A stretch of DNA of 39,253 nt from a virus, in UHGV virus genome UHGV-1369056. One strand, written 5' to 3'. The notes below the pieces were generated by a model. It was not told the origin of the DNA, made no database searches, and saw only the letters and a program-made list of their open reading frames with translations. Below are positions 1 to 35,730 of the stretch, piece by piece (position 1 is the first letter of the stretch; the number at the start of each line of letters is the position of its first letter). The position numbers were made by a program, and so were the translations under genes.

Positions 1-78
1 ACAACCATAAGTCACAACCATAAGTCACAACCATAAGTCACAACCATAAGTCACAACCATAAGTCACAACCATAAGAC
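1..78. repeat. Tandem array of a 13-bp unit ACAACCATAAGTC (5 perfect copies plus 1 imperfect copy); the array continues across the window boundary
   Basis: Direct reading: units at 1-13, 14-26, 27-39, 40-52, 53-65, variant acaaccataagac at 66-78. The last 13 nt of the window (ataaccataagtc) are a further near-copy. Confidence 0.9.
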
Positions 79-722
79 ACCAACGCCTACAGTCAAAGGC
101 CTACAGTTAATCGACACACAGCTATAGACTTAAGGTCAAAGACATGTTAGTCAAAGACTATATCCTCTTACACCATGGGGCCGACGATAGCTTACTCAAT
201 ATTATTTCAAATTACCTATTGACTACAGGTCTAGACTATGGCTTAATAGATTCCGTCAACACGACACGGCAACAACCGATAGTGAAGACGCCGGGTCATC
301 CCGGTTAAGTAGACAGCCTGATAAGTCATACGAACAACAGGCAGATGACAGAAGCAGTTGACAAGCTGTACCGACTTAAAGTAGTATGTACCACGTAGCA
401 AGATGGCGTAGGGATAGGAACCGAGAAACCTGCCCGAGACCAGCCAAGGATAAGGCACCAGCTGTGAGTCGAATTCGGTCACTCACCGCATAAAAGAATA
501 ACAGGTTGACAGCCTCCTTTAAAAGCTGTAAGCTGTACCACATCGAAACGACAGTGAGTCCCAACACTGAAACGGGATAGCACGGCGACGACAGCCAACG
601 CGAATGCTCTTTAACAATCTGGATAAACTCTTAATGTGCGCCGATAGCGACTAACTACAGGGTCTTTGAGTCTACATCTGAAGGCCTTGACTGATAGTCA
701 CTAACTTAAATAGGGTAACATT

Positions 723-899
723 ATGAAAATCATAGCGATGAACGAAGAACTGGGCGTAATCTGGTATACGGCTAACGACTATAAGTATCGCACTAAGCAT
801 GTGATAATCTACGGATTGTCTAAGACTGAGTGGGATAGCCGTGAGCAAGCGCAGGACGCGTTCAATAAGTGCCTGAACCATGCGTTCAATTGCCAGTGA
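723..899 (+). CDS. Hypothetical small early protein (58 aa, MKIIAMNEELGVIWYTANDYKYRT...)
   Basis: ATG at 723, TGA at 897-899, read by hand (below the 60-aa cutoff of the ORF track). Same strand as all other genes; preceded by a copy of the repeated early element tgatagtcactaac. Weak SD. Confidence 0.35.
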   Translation: MKIIAMNEELGVIWYTANDYKYRTKHVIIYGLSKTEWDSREQAQDAFNKCLNHAFNCQ

Positions 900-980
900 T
901 TAACTACAGGTCGTTAGACTCATAGCGGCCTGATTGATAGTCACTAACATACACACAATTAACTTTGAGAGGATATAAAT

Positions 981-1325
981 ATGGAACGTAACGCTAACGC
1001 ATACTATGACCTGCTGGCTGCAACCGTTGAGCTGTTCAATGAGCGTATTCAGTACGACGAAATAGCTGAAGGCGATGATTATTACGATGCGCTGCATGAA
1101 GTCGTAGACTATATGGTTCCGCACTATTACCACGAGATTTTCACGGTAATGGCTGCTGATGGTATAGACCACGAGTTTGAGGACTCTGGGCTGATGCCTG
1201 AAACCAAGGATGTAACGCGTATACTGCAAGCCCGCATCTATGAGGCGCTTTATAACGACGTGTCTAATAGCTCGGATGTGGTCTGGTTTGAGGATGAAGA
1301 GGCAGACGAGGAGGATTGCGAGTGA
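981..1325 (+). CDS. ocr: Ocr-like anti-restriction protein (T7 gp0.3 homologue), DNA mimic
   Basis: 114-aa acidic protein; the segment VPHYYHEIFTVMAADGIDHEFEDSGLMPETKDVTRILQARIYE closely matches T7 Ocr as recalled (VPHYY..IF.VMA.EGID.EFEDSGLMPDTKDV.RILQARIYE); acidic C-terminus; SD gagagg upstream. Confidence 0.9.
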   Translation: MERNANAYYDLLAATVELFNERIQYDEIAEGDDYYDALHEVVDYMVPHYYHEIFTVMAADGIDHEFEDSGLMPETKDVTRILQARIYEALYNDVSNSSDVVWFEDEEADEEDCE

Positions 1326-1482
1326 TAGTGACTTATGGTCTCTGCCAGCACCACGTCACCAACGCCCGGCTTATGGTCAAGACCGGGCAGTTAAACCACG
1401 ATGCGACTATGCGCCACCTGAAAGCGGTCTATGAGGGCCGCAAGCGTATACACGACAGCTTACACGATGAGGATAACCAACA

Positions 1483-1683
1483 ATGACACGCAACGATATA
1501 ATTGATAGACTTAAGTCCGTATATCTGGTAGGTGATGGGCCAATACGCATAACTGCCAAGAGCTATGAAGGCAACATACTAGCACCTGAGGGCACAGCAT
1601 ATCGGATATCATTTACCGACCTTATCACCTCCAAGCGTAGGACCGTTACGCTGTGGCCTAACACTGTAGGATTCCAAGGGTAA
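1483..1683 (+). CDS. Hypothetical early protein (66 aa)
   Basis: ORF in the early region, + strand, SD-like gaggat upstream; no recognisable motif. Confidence 0.4.
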   Translation: MTRNDIIDRLKSVYLVGDGPIRITAKSYEGNILAPEGTAYRISFTDLITSKRRTVTLWPNTVGFQG

Positions 1684-1689
1684 GCAGAA

Positions 1690-1815
1690 ATGTACCAGAT
1701 AACTTATAGCAGTGAACAGGCGTTCTACGATGGGTGCTACGAGATGATGAAGCGCGGGGCTTGCTACGTGGCTAATCACCATAGCTTGACCATAACGCTG
1801 ACAGGTGGATACTGA
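1690..1815 (+). CDS. Hypothetical small early protein (41 aa, MYQITYSSEQAFYDGCYEMMKRGACYVANHH...)
   Basis: Hand-read ORF, ATG 1690 to TGA 1813-1815; below the ORF-track cutoff; Cys/His-containing; weak SD. Confidence 0.25.
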   Translation: MYQITYSSEQAFYDGCYEMMKRGACYVANHHSLTITLTGGY

Positions 1816-1971
1816 GTGATAAACGAGAGGTCATCGACTGATAGGTGGCCTCAAAGATTATCACTTACATTGATAGGGGTTAACTATGAGTGTGGGATAT
1901 TTGGTATGCCTAGCGCCAGTTATCTGGATGATAGGTTATGGGATATACGATTGTATTAAACGGAAATCACT

Positions 1972-2169
1972 ATGAGTATCGAACTATTGATAGCCATAGG
2001 CTATGGACTTATCGCCTACATGCTGATGAGAGACATCAACAAGGCACGTAAAGTCTATAAATTCAACTATGCACGTCTGGGCCGCTGGACTGTACGCCAA
2101 CCTAATGGGCGATTCGCGCGTAACTTAGCGAACGTCTGGGATATAGCAACTCTTGGGAGCAAACTGTAA
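1972..2169 (+). CDS. Hypothetical early protein (65 aa) with hydrophobic N-terminus (possible membrane anchor)
   Basis: ORF on + strand; N-terminal LLIAIGYGLIAYML hydrophobic stretch; stop overlaps the next ORF start (TAATG). Confidence 0.4.
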   Translation: MSIELLIAIGYGLIAYMLMRDINKARKVYKFNYARLGRWTVRQPNGRFARNLANVWDIATLGSKL

Positions 2170-2495
2170 TGAACAAGTCATACGGGATTAATTTGGTACG
2201 CTCTATGGACGCAGAAATGAACATGTTAAGCCTACTGGCTACCGGGTATCGTCACGGAACGTCAAGTCACACCGCACGTCAACAGCAGGAGCGGGACCGT
2301 GTACTACAGGCACGACTCAGGGCAGAGGGCCATAAGTCCGAGCTGATGTGTCTGGCGTATGGTGGACGACCAATCACCGACGATGGTAAACTTCTGGTCT
2401 CAGGCTGGAAGGCGATAGACCAACGGTCAACCATCAAGCACACGACTCACGGTGACTTCAGTCATCTTCACGCTAACCCTCTGATATGCAAGTAA
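2169..2495 (+). CDS. Hypothetical early protein (108 aa), in the position T7 gene 0.7 occupies but not a protein kinase
   Basis: ORF directly upstream of the RNA polymerase gene; no kinase motifs and far too short for a gp0.7 homologue. Confidence 0.45.
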   Translation: MNKSYGINLVRSMDAEMNMLSLLATGYRHGTSSHTARQQQERDRVLQARLRAEGHKSELMCLAYGGRPITDDGKLLVSGWKAIDQRSTIKHTTHGDFSHLHANPLICK

Positions 2496-2500
2496 TTATG

Positions 2501-2523
2501 ACTTAACTATCACTATAGGACTC
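2501..2523 (+). promoter_or_regulatory. Phage RNAP promoter (-17..+6), ACTTAACTATCACTATAGGACTC
   Basis: Matches the 11-copy consensus cTAAACTATCACTATAGG; the CACTATAG core is identical to the T7 class III core; sits upstream of gene 1. Confidence 0.75.
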
Positions 2524-2592
2524 AAGGTCTAAGACTCCAAGTGAAAGACCAAAGAGACTTTAAGTGAAAGACTAATAACAAGGACTTTAAGT

Positions 2593-5274
2593 ATGAGCGT
2601 CATCTCTATTGAAAAACACGACTTCTCTGATGTGTCGAACGCCATTGAGCCGTTTAACCTGCTGGCTGACCACTACGGGCAAGACCTTGCAGTCAAACAG
2701 CTTCAGCTTGAGCACGAGGCATACACTGAAGGCGAGCGACGTTTCATCAAGAACCTTGAGCGCCAGACTGAGCGCGGGGAACTGGCAGACAATCAGGTCG
2801 CCAAGCCTTTGATGCAGACTCTGGTCCCTAAGATTGCGCAAGCCGTAAGGGAGTGGCATGAAGGGCCAGACGGGAAGCTGTCAACCTCTCGTCCTAGCGT
2901 GGCGTTCACCATGTTGAGCACTGAAGAGAAGGCCGTCAAGGACCGCTCTCTGCGCATCTCATGTGAGTCTGCTGCGGTTATCATACTGAAGGTCATACTC
3001 TCCAAGCTGGTCAAGCCTGAAGGGATACCGATTACACCGATGGCCTCCGCGATAGGTCGCACACTTGAGGACGAAATCCGCTTCGGCCGCATCCGTGACA
3101 AGGAGAAAGAGCACTTCAAGAAGGCGATAGCTGATAACCTGAATAAGCGGGCCGGGGCGTCCTACAAGAAAGCCTACATGCAAGCGGTCGAGGCATCCAT
3201 GCTGGAGCAAGGCCAACTGGAAGATGCGTGGGGGACTTGGAGTCCTACAGAGGCTGTCCACGTTGGCATCAAGATGCTTGAGATTGTCATCCAGTCAACA
3301 CAACTGGTCGAGCTTAAGCGGTACGGTGCTGGCAATGCAGCGGCTGACGTAGAGATGGTCCACCTGTCAGACTGCTGGGTCAAGAAGATGGCACAACGAG
3401 GATTCAGCCTTGCGGGTATCGCTCCAGTCTACCAGCCTTGCGTCGTTCCACCTAAGCCGTGGACTGGTGTCGTAGGCGGTGGGTACTGGGCCAAAGGTCG
3501 CAGACCGCTGCCCCTGATTCGCTTAGGGTCTAAGTCAGCGGTGGCACGTTATGAAGACGTATACATGCCTGAAGTCTATGACGCTGTGAATATCATCCAG
3601 AATACACCTTGGAAAGTGAACAAGAAGGTGCTGGACGTGGTGAACATGGTCGAGAAGTTGAACAACACACCTATTGATGACATCCCTCAGATGGAGCCAC
3701 TGAAGCCTGAAGACTATGCGGGTGAGACTGAAGAGGAACTCAAGGCATGGAAGAAGGCTGCTGCTGGTATCTACCGCCGAGAGAAGGCCCGGCAGTCACG
3801 TAGATTGTCACTGAGCTTTATCGTTAACCAAGCGAACAAGTTCTCTCAGTTCAAGGCCATCTGGTTTCCGTACAACATGGACTGGCGCGGTCGCGTCTAC
3901 GCTGTGCCGATGTTCAACCCTCAGGGTAACGACATGCAAAAGGGTCTCCTGACTCTGGCAGTCGGTAAGCCTATTGGTGCTGATGGTTTCAAATGGCTGA
4001 AGGTCCACGGTGCAAACTGTGCGGGTATTGATAAAGTAACCTTCGAGGAGCGCATCAAGTGGGTGGAAGATAACCACGACAACATCATGGCTACCGCTAA
4101 GGCACCGATGGACAGCATTGAGTGGTGGGGTAAGTTAGACTCTCCGTTCTGCTTCCTAGCGTTCTGCTTCGAGTATGCTGGCGTAATGCACCACGGTTTG
4201 TCTTACTCCTGCTCGCTGCCGATAGCTTTCGATGGGTCCTGCTCTGGGATTCAGCACTTCAGCGCGATGCTTCGTGACCACATCGGTGGGCATGCAGTAA
4301 ACCTAACGCCATCCGGTAAGGTCCAAGACATCTATCGCATTGTGTCTGACCGCATTGAGGAGGAACTCAAAGTCCTGCTGGTTAACGGTACGGACAACGA
4401 GATGGCAACTCACGAGGACAAGAAAACTGGTGAGATTACCGAGCGTCTCAAGCTGGGGACACGAGAGCTGGCCCGTCAGTGGCTGACCTACGGTATGTCA
4501 CGCAAGGTCACTAAGCGTTCGGTCATGACTCTGGCCTACGGGTCGAAAGAGTACGGCTTCGCAGACCAAGTATACGAGGACATCGTGATGCCAGCGATTG
4601 ACTCAGGGTCTGGCGCTATGTTCACTGAACCAAGCCAAGCGTCTCGCTTCATGGCTAAGATGATTTGGGAAGCTGTGAGTGTGACAGTAGTTGCTGCGGT
4701 TGACGCGATGAAGTGGCTTCAAGGTGCTGCCAAGCTGCTGGCTGCTGAGGTGAAGGACAAGAAGACTGGAGAAATCCTGAAGCCTTGTCTTCCGGTACAC
4801 TGGGTCACACCTGATGGGTTCCCGGTATGGCAGGAATACCGCAAGAAGGATACCACTCGTCTGAACCTGATGTTCTTAGGGTCATTCAACCTTCAGCCTA
4901 CAGTCAACAAAGGCACGAAGAAAGAGCTGGACAAGCACAAGCAGGAGTCAGGCATTAGCCCGAACTTCGTCCACTCACAAGATGGTAGCCACCTCCGAAA
5001 GACTGTAGTCCACACTCACCGCAAGTATGGCGTGATGTCATTCGCAGTGATTCACGATAGCTTCGGGACCATCCCGGCTGACGCTGAGTATCTGTTCCGT
5101 GGCGTCCGTGAGACGATGGTAGAGACTTACCGCGACAACGATGTGCTGCTTGACTTCTACGAGCAGTTTGAATACCAGCTTCACGAGAGCCAGCGCGACA
5201 AGTTGCCTGAGCTTCCGAAGAAAGGTAAACTGAATATCGAGGACATCTTGTCTTCAGACTTTGCATTCGCTTAA
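2593..5274 (+). CDS. 1: Single-subunit DNA-directed RNA polymerase (T7 gene 1 homologue)
   Basis: 893 aa; C-terminus ...HSQDGSHLRK...IHDSFGTIPADA...FAFA and many internal blocks are characteristic of T7-type RNAP; SD upstream. Confidence 0.98.
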   Translation: MSVISIEKHDFSDVSNAIEPFNLLADHYGQDLAVKQLQLEHEAYTEGERRFIKNLERQTERGELADNQVAKPLMQTLVPKIAQAVREWHEGPDGKLSTSRPSVAFTMLSTEEKAVKDRSLRISCESAAVIILKVILSKLVKPEGIPITPMASAIGRTLEDEIRFGRIRDKEKEHFKKAIADNLNKRAGASYKKAYMQAVEASMLEQGQLEDAWGTWSPTEAVHVGIKMLEIVIQSTQLVELKRYGAGNAAADVEMVHLSDCWVKKMAQRGFSLAGIAPVYQPCVVPPKPWTGVVGGGYWAKGRRPLPLIRLGSKSAVARYEDVYMPEVYDAVNIIQNTPWKVNKKVLDVVNMVEKLNNTPIDDIPQMEPLKPEDYAGETEEELKAWKKAAAGIYRREKARQSRRLSLSFIVNQANKFSQFKAIWFPYNMDWRGRVYAVPMFNPQGNDMQKGLLTLAVGKPIGADGFKWLKVHGANCAGIDKVTFEERIKWVEDNHDNIMATAKAPMDSIEWWGKLDSPFCFLAFCFEYAGVMHHGLSYSCSLPIAFDGSCSGIQHFSAMLRDHIGGHAVNLTPSGKVQDIYRIVSDRIEEELKVLLVNGTDNEMATHEDKKTGEITERLKLGTRELARQWLTYGMSRKVTKRSVMTLAYGSKEYGFADQVYEDIVMPAIDSGSGAMFTEPSQASRFMAKMIWEAVSVTVVAAVDAMKWLQGAAKLLAAEVKDKKTGEILKPCLPVHWVTPDGFPVWQEYRKKDTTRLNLMFLGSFNLQPTVNKGTKKELDKHKQESGISPNFVHSQDGSHLRKTVVHTHRKYGVMSFAVIHDSFGTIPADAEYLFRGVRETMVETYRDNDVLLDFYEQFEYQLHESQRDKLPELPKKGKLNIEDILSSDFAFA

Positions 5275-5289
5275 CAGCAGGAGAAGTAT

Positions 5290-5520
5290 ATGTCAATGAA
5301 ACTTGTAGCACACAACAAGGCATTCAACGATGGGTCAGGACGTTGCCATGTAGAGCTTACTTATAAGGATTTAGTCATTCTCCGCGAAAGATTACAAGCA
5401 GGTGTGACTGGGTGGATTCAACCTAACGAGTACAACCTTATAGCCTCGATTGATGAAGTGCTTAACGCGTGGAGGGAAGACGAGCGCACTCAATATCCGT
5501 CATTCCCTATGATTAGATAA
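5290..5520 (+). CDS. Hypothetical protein (76 aa), accessory gene between gene 1 and gene 1.1
   Basis: ORF with SD gcaggagaagt upstream; no T7 counterpart recalled at this position. Confidence 0.5.
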   Translation: MSMKLVAHNKAFNDGSGRCHVELTYKDLVILRERLQAGVTGWIQPNEYNLIASIDEVLNAWREDERTQYPSFPMIR

Positions 5521-5530
5521 GGAGAGAGTT

Positions 5531-5746
5531 ATGAATTTTGCACACAAGCAGGCTGGAGTTAAGGGCGGGACTCAAATCGTGACCGTAACAGAACACAACG
5601 GCAAGGGTCTGGTGAAGACCACTGTCATTCCTACCGAGATGTCAAAACAGCTTAACGTCCCATTCAAGACCCTCGTCTATCTTGTGGAATCCAGCCACGA
5701 GAAGTACCTGAAAGACGCAGTGTCCAAGCTGGAGCAGACCAAATGA
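5531..5746 (+). CDS. Hypothetical protein (71 aa), accessory gene between gene 1 and gene 1.1
   Basis: ORF with SD aaggagag upstream; unknown function. Confidence 0.5.
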   Translation: MNFAHKQAGVKGGTQIVTVTEHNGKGLVKTTVIPTEMSKQLNVPFKTLVYLVESSHEKYLKDAVSKLEQTK

Positions 5747-5820
5747 CACACCTACAGTTACTGGCCTTGTGGCTGGGAGCACTAGCAGTATTCACTTTAA
5801 TCCAACGCAGAAGAGGTTGA

Positions 5821-5843
5821 CCTAAACTATCACTATAGGATTA
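5821..5843 (+). promoter_or_regulatory. Phage RNAP promoter, CCTAAACTATCACTATAGGATTA
   Basis: Consensus match; upstream of gene 1.1 (as T7 phi1.1). Confidence 0.8.
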
Positions 5844-5890
5844 GACTCAAGGTCATGACTTAAAGTCGTGGCCTTCATGATTAACCCTAT
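5834..5890 (+). promoter_or_regulatory. RNase III-like processing stem-loop (copy A of 3)
   Basis: Upper stem aaggtcatgac/gtcgtggcctt (5849-5859 / 5865-5875, including G-U pairs) with loop ttaaa, flanked by lower stem tatagg/cctata. Shares the motif agactcaaggtcat...gtggcctt with copies at 12895 and 35630, with compensatory changes. Confidence 0.55.
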
Positions 5891-5914
5891 AACCTAAACA
5901 ACTGGAGCTACAAC

Positions 5915-6094
5915 ATGTATCAGAACACTATCAACTTCGAGCGCATCCGTGAACGTCAGAAGACTGAAGGCTACATTCCGAAGGGCCGCAAGCTGAACAA
6001 GACAAAGCGTGGAGGCGGTGTCAAAGGTGCTTTCCGTAACGCTGAAGGCAAAGACTCTATGGTCAACCAAGAGAAATACTTCGTAGGAGCATAA
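5915..6094 (+). CDS. 1.1: gp1.1-like small basic protein (59 aa)
   Basis: Hand-read ORF; contains KGRKLNKTKR, matching the T7 gp1.1 motif (GRKLNKTKR) as recalled; SD ctggagc upstream. Confidence 0.65.
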   Translation: MYQNTINFERIRERQKTEGYIPKGRKLNKTKRGGGVKGAFRNAEGKDSMVNQEKYFVGA

Positions 6095-12730: not shown

Positions 12731-12895
12731 ATGCTAAGAAAACTTAAAGCTCGCTACCATCGGTTCATGTACAAATGGTGGAGCGACGCAGCAACCTGCC
12801 TGTCCAACATTCTGGGAGACCAGAGGTTCGACTCTAAGGCATGGAAGAAAGCTAACCGTAAGTTTATGTATCACTTCTTGCGTACAGACTTATAG
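12731..12895 (+). CDS. Hypothetical small basic protein (54 aa)
   Basis: ATG 12731 with SD aggaga, in frame with track ORF 12656..12895; position corresponds to the T7 4.x small genes. Confidence 0.4.
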   Translation: MLRKLKARYHRFMYKWWSDAATCLSNILGDQRFDSKAWKKANRKFMYHFLRTDL

Positions 12896-12941
12896 GTCTA
12901 AACTCAAGGTCATTCACATAGAGTGGCCTTTATGATTAGAC
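12895..12941 (+). promoter_or_regulatory. RNase III-like processing stem-loop (copy B of 3)
   Basis: Lower stem gtctaa/ttagac, upper stem aaggtcatt/agtggcctt, loop cacatag; same architecture as copies A and C; located just upstream of the DNA polymerase gene, like T7 R4.7. Confidence 0.55.
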
Positions 12942-12958
12942 TAAACGGAGGATTAACC

Positions 12959-35369: not shown

Positions 35370-35629
35370 CGCAGATGGACTTAGAGAAGTTCCTCTTAAT
35401 GCTAGATACTGAACGTGCTCGACTCATGCTGCAAGACTTGCGGGATGACACTAAGCGTTCACCTCAGCTCTACAACGCCATTGAGAAGCTGCTTGCTCGT
35501 CACAACTTTGTGTTAAGCAAGGTGTCTGTTGACGAGAAGACGCTGGCTGATATGGAGGCCCTGAACGCAGAGTACGATAAGGTGCTTTCAGCGACTGAGG
35601 ATAATGACACAGGGTATGGTGTTCAATAA
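35366..35629 (+). CDS. 18: Terminase small subunit (gp18 homologue)
   Basis: 87 aa; FLLMLDTERARLMLQDL.D..KRSPQLYNAIEKLLARHNF matches T7 gp18 (FLEMLDTAMAQRMLADL.D.ERRSPQLYNAINKLLDRHKF). Confidence 0.88.
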   Translation: MTQMDLEKFLLMLDTERARLMLQDLRDDTKRSPQLYNAIEKLLARHNFVLSKVSVDEKTLADMEALNAEYDKVLSATEDNDTGYGVQ

Positions 35630-35679
35630 GTGTTAGACTCAAGGTCATTACTATATGTAGTGGCCTTTATGGTTAACAC
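35630..35679 (+). promoter_or_regulatory. RNase III-like processing stem-loop (copy C of 3)
   Basis: Lower stem gtgtta/taacac, upper stem aaggtcattac/gtagtggcctt, loop tatat; between genes 18 and 18.5, as T7 R18.5. Confidence 0.55.
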
Positions 35680-35730
35680 TAACTAGTGGAGGCGACTCTA
35701 CGTGAAATCTGATAAACCGGGAGGGCAACT

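Follow-up and report, generated by a model that had tools for sequence, protein, structure and literature searches.

Organization of the early region

We analysed the early region of the UHGV virus genome UHGV-1369056, a stretch of 39,253 nucleotides (nt) referred to here as the window, focusing on the interval between the anti-restriction gene ocr (981-1325) and the RNA polymerase (RNAP) gene (2593-5274). By its sequence, the window belongs to Kayfunavirus, the K1F-like genus of T7-like phages within the Studiervirinae. Over the half that holds the replication and structural genes it shares ~94% identity with coliphages CY1 and YZ1, and its early region matches 258 phage records, mostly from Kayfunavirus phages of Escherichia, Salmonella, Klebsiella and Enterobacter.

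All features of the interval lie on the + strand. The left border is formed by ocr (gene 0.3), which encodes a DNA-mimic anti-restriction protein and was recognized by Pfam PF08684 ocr (E = 9e-32), by phrog_2568 (E = 5.5e-53) and by 52% identity to T7 gp0.3. It is followed by a 54-amino-acid (aa) gene of the Gp0.4 family with a GTG start, assigned by profile homology (1322-1486; 'gp0.35' in K1F and EcoDS1), a basic accessory open reading frame (ORF) of 66 aa (1483-1683; phrog_16587, E = 4e-14) and a 41-aa ORF supported by codon-position bias (1690-1815; 'gp0.351' in CLB_P1). A putative RNase III processing hairpin of the T7/T3 R0.5 type, identified by folding, occupies 1813-1867. Beyond it lie an ORF kept in relatives (1886-1975), which occupies the place of T7 gene 0.5 and encodes a hydrophobic 29-aa peptide ending in a basic tail, a 65-aa gp0.6 of the T3 type (1972-2169; 'gp0.6' in K1F and 'gp0.37' in CLB_P1; phrog_2385, E = 3e-30) and the 108-aa gp0.38, named as in EcoDS1 and CLB_P1, which belongs to an orphan family (2169-2495; phrog_7066, E = 3e-46). 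The right border is a match to the phage-RNAP promoter consensus, TAACTATCACTATAGGA, at 2504-2520, upstream of gene 1, the 893-aa ORF of a T7-type single-subunit RNAP that is annotated as RNA polymerase in all relatives examined. A previous sequence-only reading had placed ORFs at 1483-1683, 1690-1815, 1972-2169 and 2169-2495, and all of these are present in the ORF list of the window. Scans against Pfam and NCBIfam gave no match for any ORF of the interval except ocr.

The ORFs of the interval are class I early genes, lying between sigma-70-like promoters and gene 1. Successive genes overlap as ATGA or TAATG at 1483, 1972 and 2169 and as GTGA at 1322; thus, the early genes form translationally coupled strings. 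We propose that the interval represents the standard class I block (early, transcribed by host RNAP) of a K1F-like phage, colinear with T7/T3 genes 0.3 to 1 and carrying other cargo, in which a putative RNase III processing hairpin separates two coupled strings. The first string comprises ocr, the Gp0.4-family protein, the 66-aa accessory ORF and the 41-aa ORF. The second comprises the 29-aa membrane peptide, the T3-type gp0.6 and gp0.38, followed by the phage promoter and gene 1. The order agrees with that of T7, running from 0.3 and 0.4 through the accessory ORFs and R0.5 to a small membrane peptide at the site of gp0.5 in T7, and then to 0.6. What is established for the block is its homology and synteny, the conserved residues, the coding signatures, the structure of the hairpin and the way in which cassettes are distributed, and we assign this layout, with its gene assignments, a probability of roughly 0.8.

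The same string of ORFs is common to Peacock, EPr2, CHX131, K1F, LS2, Ro103C3lw, CLB_P1, KKP_3263, MopsHU1 and SH3/SH4. Compared with the early genes of K1F, EcoDS1 and CLB_P1, the window encodes direct orthologues of gp0.35 (76% identity to K1F), gp0.351, gp0.6 (88%) and gp0.38 (~90% over the core), with the same order and coupling. It differs in carrying the 29-aa peptide where K1F and CLB_P1 carry a 55-aa gp0.36, and in its additional 66-aa ORF, which is present in only one other record. In K1F itself, the 41-aa ORF is absent and the gp0.38 frame is broken upstream of the core. The layout is already known, as CLB_P1, EcoDS1 and SH3/SH4 annotate the same ORFs and hundreds of genomes list them as hypothetical proteins; the K1F genome was reportedly sequenced in 2005. 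The sequence-only reading had treated the ORFs as undescribed, a view that does not hold, as they bear the names gp0.35, gp0.351, gp0.6/0.37 and gp0.38 in relatives. That they might prove to be known orthologues, a possibility it had raised against its own proposal, is borne out in part, for 1322-1486 (the characterised T7 Gp0.4) and 1972-2169 (T3 gene 0.6).

A divergent Gp0.4 follows ocr

The first ORF most likely starts at GTG 1322, where it overlaps the ocr stop codon as GTGA, preceded by a GGAGG Shine-Dalgarno sequence at 1310-1314. Relatives start the orthologous gene with ATG at the codon that is ATA (1325) in the window. The sequence-only reading had listed only a 'possible' GTG/ATG ORF at 1328/1373-1486; the gene is real, and both of those starts are less likely than GTG 1322.

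The product of this gene matches phrog_5058 (E = 1e-27), with a reciprocal cross-match at ~1e-5 to phrog_7202, the family of T7 gp0.4. Alignment of the 1322-1486 family with the T7 gp0.4 family by hhalign gave a probability of 92.9% (E = 3.7e-7, 40 columns). A hidden Markov model (HMM) of the T7 family was searched against 818 six-frame segments of the window, and 1322-1486 was the sole match (E = 0.002; next best 3.4). The reverse HMM, built from the 1322-1486 family, finds T7 gene 0.4 (E = 7e-5) and, in Klebsiella phage K82P1, the ORF that follows the SAMase gene (E = 4e-8), and finds nothing in T3, a phage reported to lack gene 0.4. Pairwise BLAST is insufficient to detect the relationship, as BLASTP of the 49-aa K1F ORF against T7 gp0.4 finds nothing. 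Precomputed annotations place Pfam PF26807.1 on all 76 homologues of the 1322-1486 ORF and on all 43 of T7 gp0.4. The ORF had no hmmscan match because PF26807 was not among the Pfam models scanned.

An AlphaFold2 (AF2) model of the 54-aa protein contains two helices, at residues 9-21 and 26-51, with a mean predicted local distance difference test score (pLDDT) of 76, and its nearest non-self matches in BFVD are small proteins of T7-like phages. T7 gene 0.4 begins at the stop of gene 0.3. The two proteins thus share a site directly after and overlapping gene 0.3, a length of ~50 aa, a predicted two-helix fold and PF26807.1. Unlike T7 Gp0.4, to which it is 28-40% identical, the 54-aa protein has an acidic, His-rich C-terminal tail (HDSLHDEDNQQ) and a GTG start. 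As judged from these profile comparisons, it is a divergent, orthologue-level relative of T7 Gp0.4.

T7 Gp0.4 was reportedly described as an inhibitor of FtsZ by Kiro et al. in 2013. The T7 protein is sensed together with FtsZ by CapRel(Ebc), and its toxicity is abolished by Ala substitutions at V15, V22, W28, M32, L35 and Y39 (PMC13423816). Mapped through the hhalign alignment, these positions correspond to V12, V19, H26, M30, L33 and Y37 of the 54-aa protein, five of the six being identical; H26, L33 and Y37 are invariant in the Kayfunavirus family. In T7, both W28A and W28L abolish FtsZ interaction or toxicity. The T7 residues implicated in contact with CapRel(Ebc), namely A12, T14, L16, S19 and R23, map by the same alignment to Q9, H11, T13, R16 and K20, with no identity at any of the five.

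We infer that the protein would combine FtsZ binding with evasion of CapRel. The helical face used by T7 Gp0.4 would also serve here to bind FtsZ monomers, and this binding would block Z-ring assembly and lead to filamentation of the host. The other face has diverged, and the protein would probably not trigger the CapRel(Ebc) sensor. Inhibition of FtsZ by the 54-aa protein is, in our estimation, moderately likely, the reservation being due mainly to the replacement of W28 by His. If the FtsZ face is kept while the CapRel(Ebc) face has diverged, the protein would be a natural variant in which inhibition of the host may be uncoupled from detection by immunity.

These observations bear on K1F, which produces multi-ring filaments with mislocalised FtsZ during infection (Dhanoa et al. 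2022, PMC9372555). The same study stated that K1F 'lacks' gene 0.4, for which there was no BLAST similarity, and that its inhibitor was 'currently unknown'; our literature search found no later paper naming the FtsZ-blocking factor of K1F. The 49-aa ORF after ocr in K1F is the 76% identical orthologue noted above. Taken together, the profile homology, the mapped residues and the K1F orthologue make the 54-aa protein and K1F gp0.35 the obvious FtsZ-inhibitor candidate. This Gp0.4 relative probably accounts for the puzzle of how K1F blocks host division, and a divergent Gp0.4 after ocr offers a concrete candidate answer to the open point of PMC9372555.

The kinase gene is an optional component of the genus

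We searched all six frames of the whole window by tblastn with T7 gp0.7 (359 aa) and with the 244-aa kinase of the Kayfunavirus type, and obtained only noise (best E-values 1.3 and 0.65, respectively). Therefore, neither an intact nor a frameshifted kinase is present in the window. This agrees with the sequence-only reading, which had described the interval as small ORFs, none with a kinase motif, in place of gp0.7; the frameshifted kinase gene that it had thought re-inspection might reveal was found in no frame. What the window shares with T7 at this point is the genomic neighbourhood only, that is, an early region upstream of gene 1 from which the gp0.7 gene is absent.

Some Kayfunavirus relatives encode a shorter, kinase-domain-only version of gp0.7, sited upstream of gp0.6 and thus not where T7 has the gene. 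This 244-aa protein is 31-41% identical to the T7- and T3-type kinases and aligns to approximately residues 8-228 of T7 gp0.7, the C-terminal part being missing. At an identity of at least 60% it is found in ~44 phage records, versus the 258 records matching the early region of the window. In Enterobacter phage vB_VIPECLMC06, also a Kayfunavirus, the gene (phrog_15752) lies between two copies of an R0.5-type hairpin (2049-2108 and 2856-2915 of the examined locus); it is preceded by the 41-aa ORF and followed by the 29-aa ORF, gp0.6 and gp0.38, all of which are retained. Bracketing of the kinase by duplicated hairpins was seen in this one record examined. In phage TM1, a 115-aa ORF with a helix-turn-helix/BrkDBD domain is bracketed by hairpins in the same manner (805-864 and 1246-1305 of the examined locus).

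The content of the region varies at further points. The slot after the hairpin holds a 55-aa membrane ORF in K1F and CLB_P1, shortened to 39 aa in MopsHU1, and the 29-aa peptide in the window. Another variable slot separates gp0.35 from the 41-aa ORF and is vacant in most relatives; it is occupied by the 66-aa ORF in the window and by a different 49-aa ORF (phrog_13225) at 679-828 of the locus of PDP351P4, another Kayfunavirus. Given that the kinase lies in a hairpin-bracketed cassette in vB_VIPECLMC06 and that the slots are variable, we conclude that the kinase is optional cargo and that its absence is the majority state. The sequence-only reading had presented the kinase-less region as unusual; it is instead the commonest state of the genus, with the same gene string in K1F, CLB_P1, Peacock, LS2, EPr2 and SH3/SH4. 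In the scheme we propose, the kinase is an optional cassette flanked by R0.5-type hairpins, with the 29-aa ORF and gp0.6 directly downstream, and the window, like most relatives, is without it. From their structure and arrangement, we infer that the repeated hairpins act as recombination joints for the gain and loss of cassettes. This suggests that RNase III sites may double as joints through which T7-like phages swap early genes.

A putative RNase III processing hairpin and a probably spurious ORF

The sequence at 1813-1867, overlooked in the sequence-only reading, folds into a lower stem, an internal loop and an upper stem with a free energy of -27.2 kcal/mol (z = -4.98), and none of 200 shuffled sequences was as stable. 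Its 3' arm, GGCCUCAAAGAUUAUCACUU, resembles the annotated R0.5 RNase III stem-loop of T3, and the element is also similar to the T7 sequence between genes 0.4 and 0.5 (GGCCU..AnGAUUAUCACUU). An alignment of 14 such hairpins, including the T7 and T3 sequences, supports a common structure with compensatory changes in 7 of 19 pairs. In K1F the hairpin is conserved as intergenic DNA. A search of positions 1-6000 against Rfam gave no match, and no family for the hairpin. The element of the window thus has the two-stem architecture with internal loop, the 3' arm and the location, between the 0.4 region and the next cistron, of the T7/T3 R0.5 sites, whereas its loop and upper-stem sequences differ. 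In relatives such as vB_VIPECLMC06 and TM1, the R0.5-type element occurs in two copies that flank an optional cassette. The structure and arrangement suggest that the hairpin may be cleaved by host RNase III.

A GTG ORF of 47 aa at 1816-1959 matches phrog_36394 (E = 1e-32) and is hence annotated elsewhere. We rejected it as a gene, as it shows no third-position bias, acquires new stops in relatives and overlies the hairpin; in K1F, the DNA of its first 23 codons is intergenic and conserved. The ORF is probably an annotation artefact, and phrog_36394 appears to have been built from mis-annotated ORFs that cover the putative RNase III hairpin and the beginning of the 29-aa gene.

We observed further hairpins resembling T7-type RNase III sites at 896-944, before ocr (strong, z = -3.7), and at ~645-705, before an ORF at 723-899 (weaker, z = -1.6). 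Hairpins identified by motif only are located at 5834-5893, 12889-12948 and 35626-35685.

Coding evidence and the accessory small ORFs

In an alignment of the region with 13-14 relatives, we tallied for each codon position (1/2/3) the distinct variant codons that change there. Changes were concentrated at third positions in 1322-1486 (27/22/49), 1690-1815 (7/6/23), 1972-2169 (14/12/29) and 2169-2495 (16/15/49), indicating that all four are coding. The GTG ORF at 1816-1959 gave 24/16/15 with two new stops and was scored as not coding.

The 66-aa ORF (1483-1683) overlaps the upstream stop codon as ATGA. It has a single close relative, in ECO104 4-5-2 (94% identity). Full-length homologues of ~45% identity occur in the early regions of Klebsiella Przondovirus phages, immediately upstream of gp0.7 (the K82P1 copy lies at 2498-2692 of its locus), and as ORF24 in the Vibrio myophage ICP1 (locus 2462-2674). 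These homologues in ICP1 and Przondovirus lead us to conclude that the ORF is a small gene that travels between very different phages. It has no match in Pfam, NCBIfam or the PDB.

The 41-aa ORF (1690-1815) is found in 112 phage records, in 41 of them at an amino-acid identity of at least 99%, and is near-invariant in 62. It is annotated in Peacock, EPr2, CHX131 and CLB_P1.

The true coordinates of the 29-aa ORF are 1886-1975. An AGGGG Shine-Dalgarno sequence lies 6 nt upstream, and the maximum 17-aa hydropathy of the peptide is 1.88. The ORF is intact in 10 of 14 relatives (11 loci with the window), as two diverged alleles of identical length. We considered and rejected homology with T7 gp0.5: there is no BLAST match, and T7 gp0.5 belongs to phrog_16572, whereas the 29-aa ORF matches no PHROG. 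The two share only their position after R0.5 and their hydrophobic character. The suggestion of the sequence-only reading that the early region may hold undescribed host-takeover or anti-defence functions is reasonable as a general idea for the 66-, 41- and 29-aa ORFs and for gp0.38.

T3-type gp0.6 and gp0.38

The protein encoded at 1972-2169 is 88% identical to K1F gp0.6 and 42% identical over 60 aa to T3 gp0.6 (E = 2e-10). A gp0.6 of this type (phrog_2385) occurs in 765 Studiervirinae records, including the '0.6A' of K11 and BA14. The 65-aa protein is predicted to have an N-terminal membrane helix and a basic tail, as does T3 gp0.6, which is likewise encoded after R0.5. By these comparisons, 1972-2169 is identified as a homologue of T3 gene 0.6. 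T7 gp0.6A/B is an inhibitor of MreB. We rejected this role for gp0.6 of the window, as there is no BLAST match to T7 gp0.6A and the PHROGs are disjoint (phrog_8393/29241 versus phrog_2385); the two proteins are unrelated, and the MreB function is therefore not transferable via the shared name. The annotation corrections for the interval are the start codon of the first ORF, the probably spurious PHROG over the putative RNase III hairpin and the T3-type identity of 'gp0.6'.

The product of gp0.38 (2169-2495) is basic and helical, with a strongly conserved core of ~83 aa (…ERDRVLQARLRAEG…YGGRPxTDDGKLL…HTTxGDFSHLHANPLICK) and a variable N-terminus that results in forms of 83, 86, 108, 130 and 139 aa. 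We found 144 homologues; those with a long contig on record lie largely on contigs of ~40 kb. Exhaustive searching of 1.84 billion proteins with HMMER retrieved only 14 representatives at 50% identity, all from the same small family or low-complexity noise. The AF2 model has a pLDDT of 64 overall and of 83-87 over residues 41-80. Fold searches with this model found no PDB entry with E < 3 and, in BFVD, only members of its own family, none of them annotated; a profile search of PDB sequences found nothing. Two possible relationships were rejected. Similarity to gp0.7, including its C-terminal shut-off part, is not apparent by hhalign against the gp0.7 profile (probability 0.5%) or by BLAST (noise), and there is no match to T3 gp0.65. 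We class gp0.38, by homologue distribution, as an orphan, genus-restricted early protein. In vB_VIPECLMC06, gp0.38 and the kinase are both present, which speaks against gp0.38 as a substitute for the kinase.

Alternative explanations

The absence of a kinase could also reflect a recent deletion or frameshift in this particular genome, with the small ORFs as debris. Some members of the genus do carry the gene beside the R0.5 hairpin, upstream of the 29-aa ORF and gp0.6. However, similarity to either kinase type has left no trace in any frame, the small ORFs are intact and linked by translational coupling, across many relatives they are conserved with changes favouring third codon positions, and the kinase-less layout is common to K1F and most of the 258 related records, so that we regard recent loss as highly improbable. 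It might further be asked whether the 29-, 41- and 66-aa ORFs are genes or chance ORFs in a transcribed leader, given that they are very short, that the codon statistics of the 29-aa ORF are weak, that the 66-aa ORF is comparable with one close relative only and that the GTG ORF at 1816-1959, itself listed in PHROGs, looks spurious. Each of the three nevertheless carries evidence of its own: the 41-aa ORF shows a 7/6/23 bias, gains no stop in 13 relatives and encodes a near-identical product in 62 records; the two alleles of the 29-aa ORF, though different at many residues, agree in length and in hydrophobic pattern and always follow a Shine-Dalgarno sequence; and the 66-aa ORF has full-length homologues of ~45% identity in unrelated phage genera. 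Chance ORFs are accordingly a quite unlikely explanation, and we retain the layout of two coupled strings of genes.

Within this layout, the functional proposals are less firm. The Gp0.4-like protein may have been retargeted, in which case the FtsZ inhibitor of the K1F group would be another early ORF, such as gp0.6, gp0.38 or a membrane peptide with an action similar to that of lambda Kil. Consistent with this, an invariant His stands in place of the W28 that T7 Gp0.4 requires, identity to the T7 protein is only 28-40% and pairwise BLASTP of the K1F copy finds nothing, and K1F shares gp0.6 and most of gp0.38 with the window, leaving these candidates in common. On the other hand, five of the six mutationally defined residues of the FtsZ face are identical and three of the corresponding positions are family-invariant, divergence is concentrated on the face sensed by CapRel, synteny and size equal those of T7 Gp0.4, and Gp0.4 is the sole known FtsZ-inhibitor family represented in the region. 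We thus consider retargeting possible and distinctly less probable than inhibition of FtsZ by the Gp0.4 relative. As for gp0.38, it could be a functional stand-in for the kinase-independent shut-off of host transcription by the C-terminal part of gp0.7. It sits where T7 has gp0.7, immediately upstream of gene 1, it is early, basic, helical and strongly conserved in the genus, and the kinase cassette of Kayfunavirus consists of the kinase domain without that C-terminal part. Yet profile-profile alignment with gp0.7 gave a probability of 0.5%, no fold match was found, and the argument is one of position only, which makes such a role unlikely. The broader proposal that gp0.38 would take over the host in a new way, perhaps by inhibiting a defence system or, independently of any kinase, host transcription, in a region where hairpins serve as recombination joints, is speculative and rather unlikely.

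Several observations weigh against the proposed layout and functions. Homology to Gp0.4 is visible by profile only, with a low effective number of sequences (Neff) and a T7-family HMM match of 13 bits, and PF26807 has no available family name. The residue corresponding to T7 W28 is His, so FtsZ binding by the 54-aa protein is not to be assumed. The codon-position signal of the 29-aa ORF at 1886-1975 is weak (7/5/8). No function is assignable to four of the six proteins (the 66-, 41- and 29-aa ORFs and gp0.38), and both RNase III cleavage at 1813-1867 and hairpin-mediated exchange of cassettes are read from structure and arrangement alone.

Promoters, repeats and other features

Matches to the phage-RNAP promoter consensus (T/A)AACTATCACTATAGG(A/G), with at most 3 mismatches, occur 10 times on the + strand of the window, versus 0.05 expected by chance. 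In addition to the copy at 2504-2520, they are located at 5824, 7580, 8556, 16989, 19810, 20816, 25789, 33066 and 38452. The copy ~70 nt upstream of the RNAP gene would let the polymerase boost its own transcription.

At the left end of the window, positions 1-80 consist of a tandem 13-nt unit, ACAACCATAAGTC, in 6.2 copies with a 98% match. This is probably a left-end repeat array such as T7-like genomes have near the terminal repeat. The ORF at 723-899, upstream of ocr, encodes 58 aa and matches phrog_20418 (E = 2e-36); this early gene lacks a counterpart in T7 and has its own hairpin-like element upstream. Finally, GenBank record MH400309.1 (Vec13) lists a 'protein kinase' at the spot that RefSeq, for this phage, labels 'ocr-like anti-restriction', and the former is probably a mislabelled ocr.

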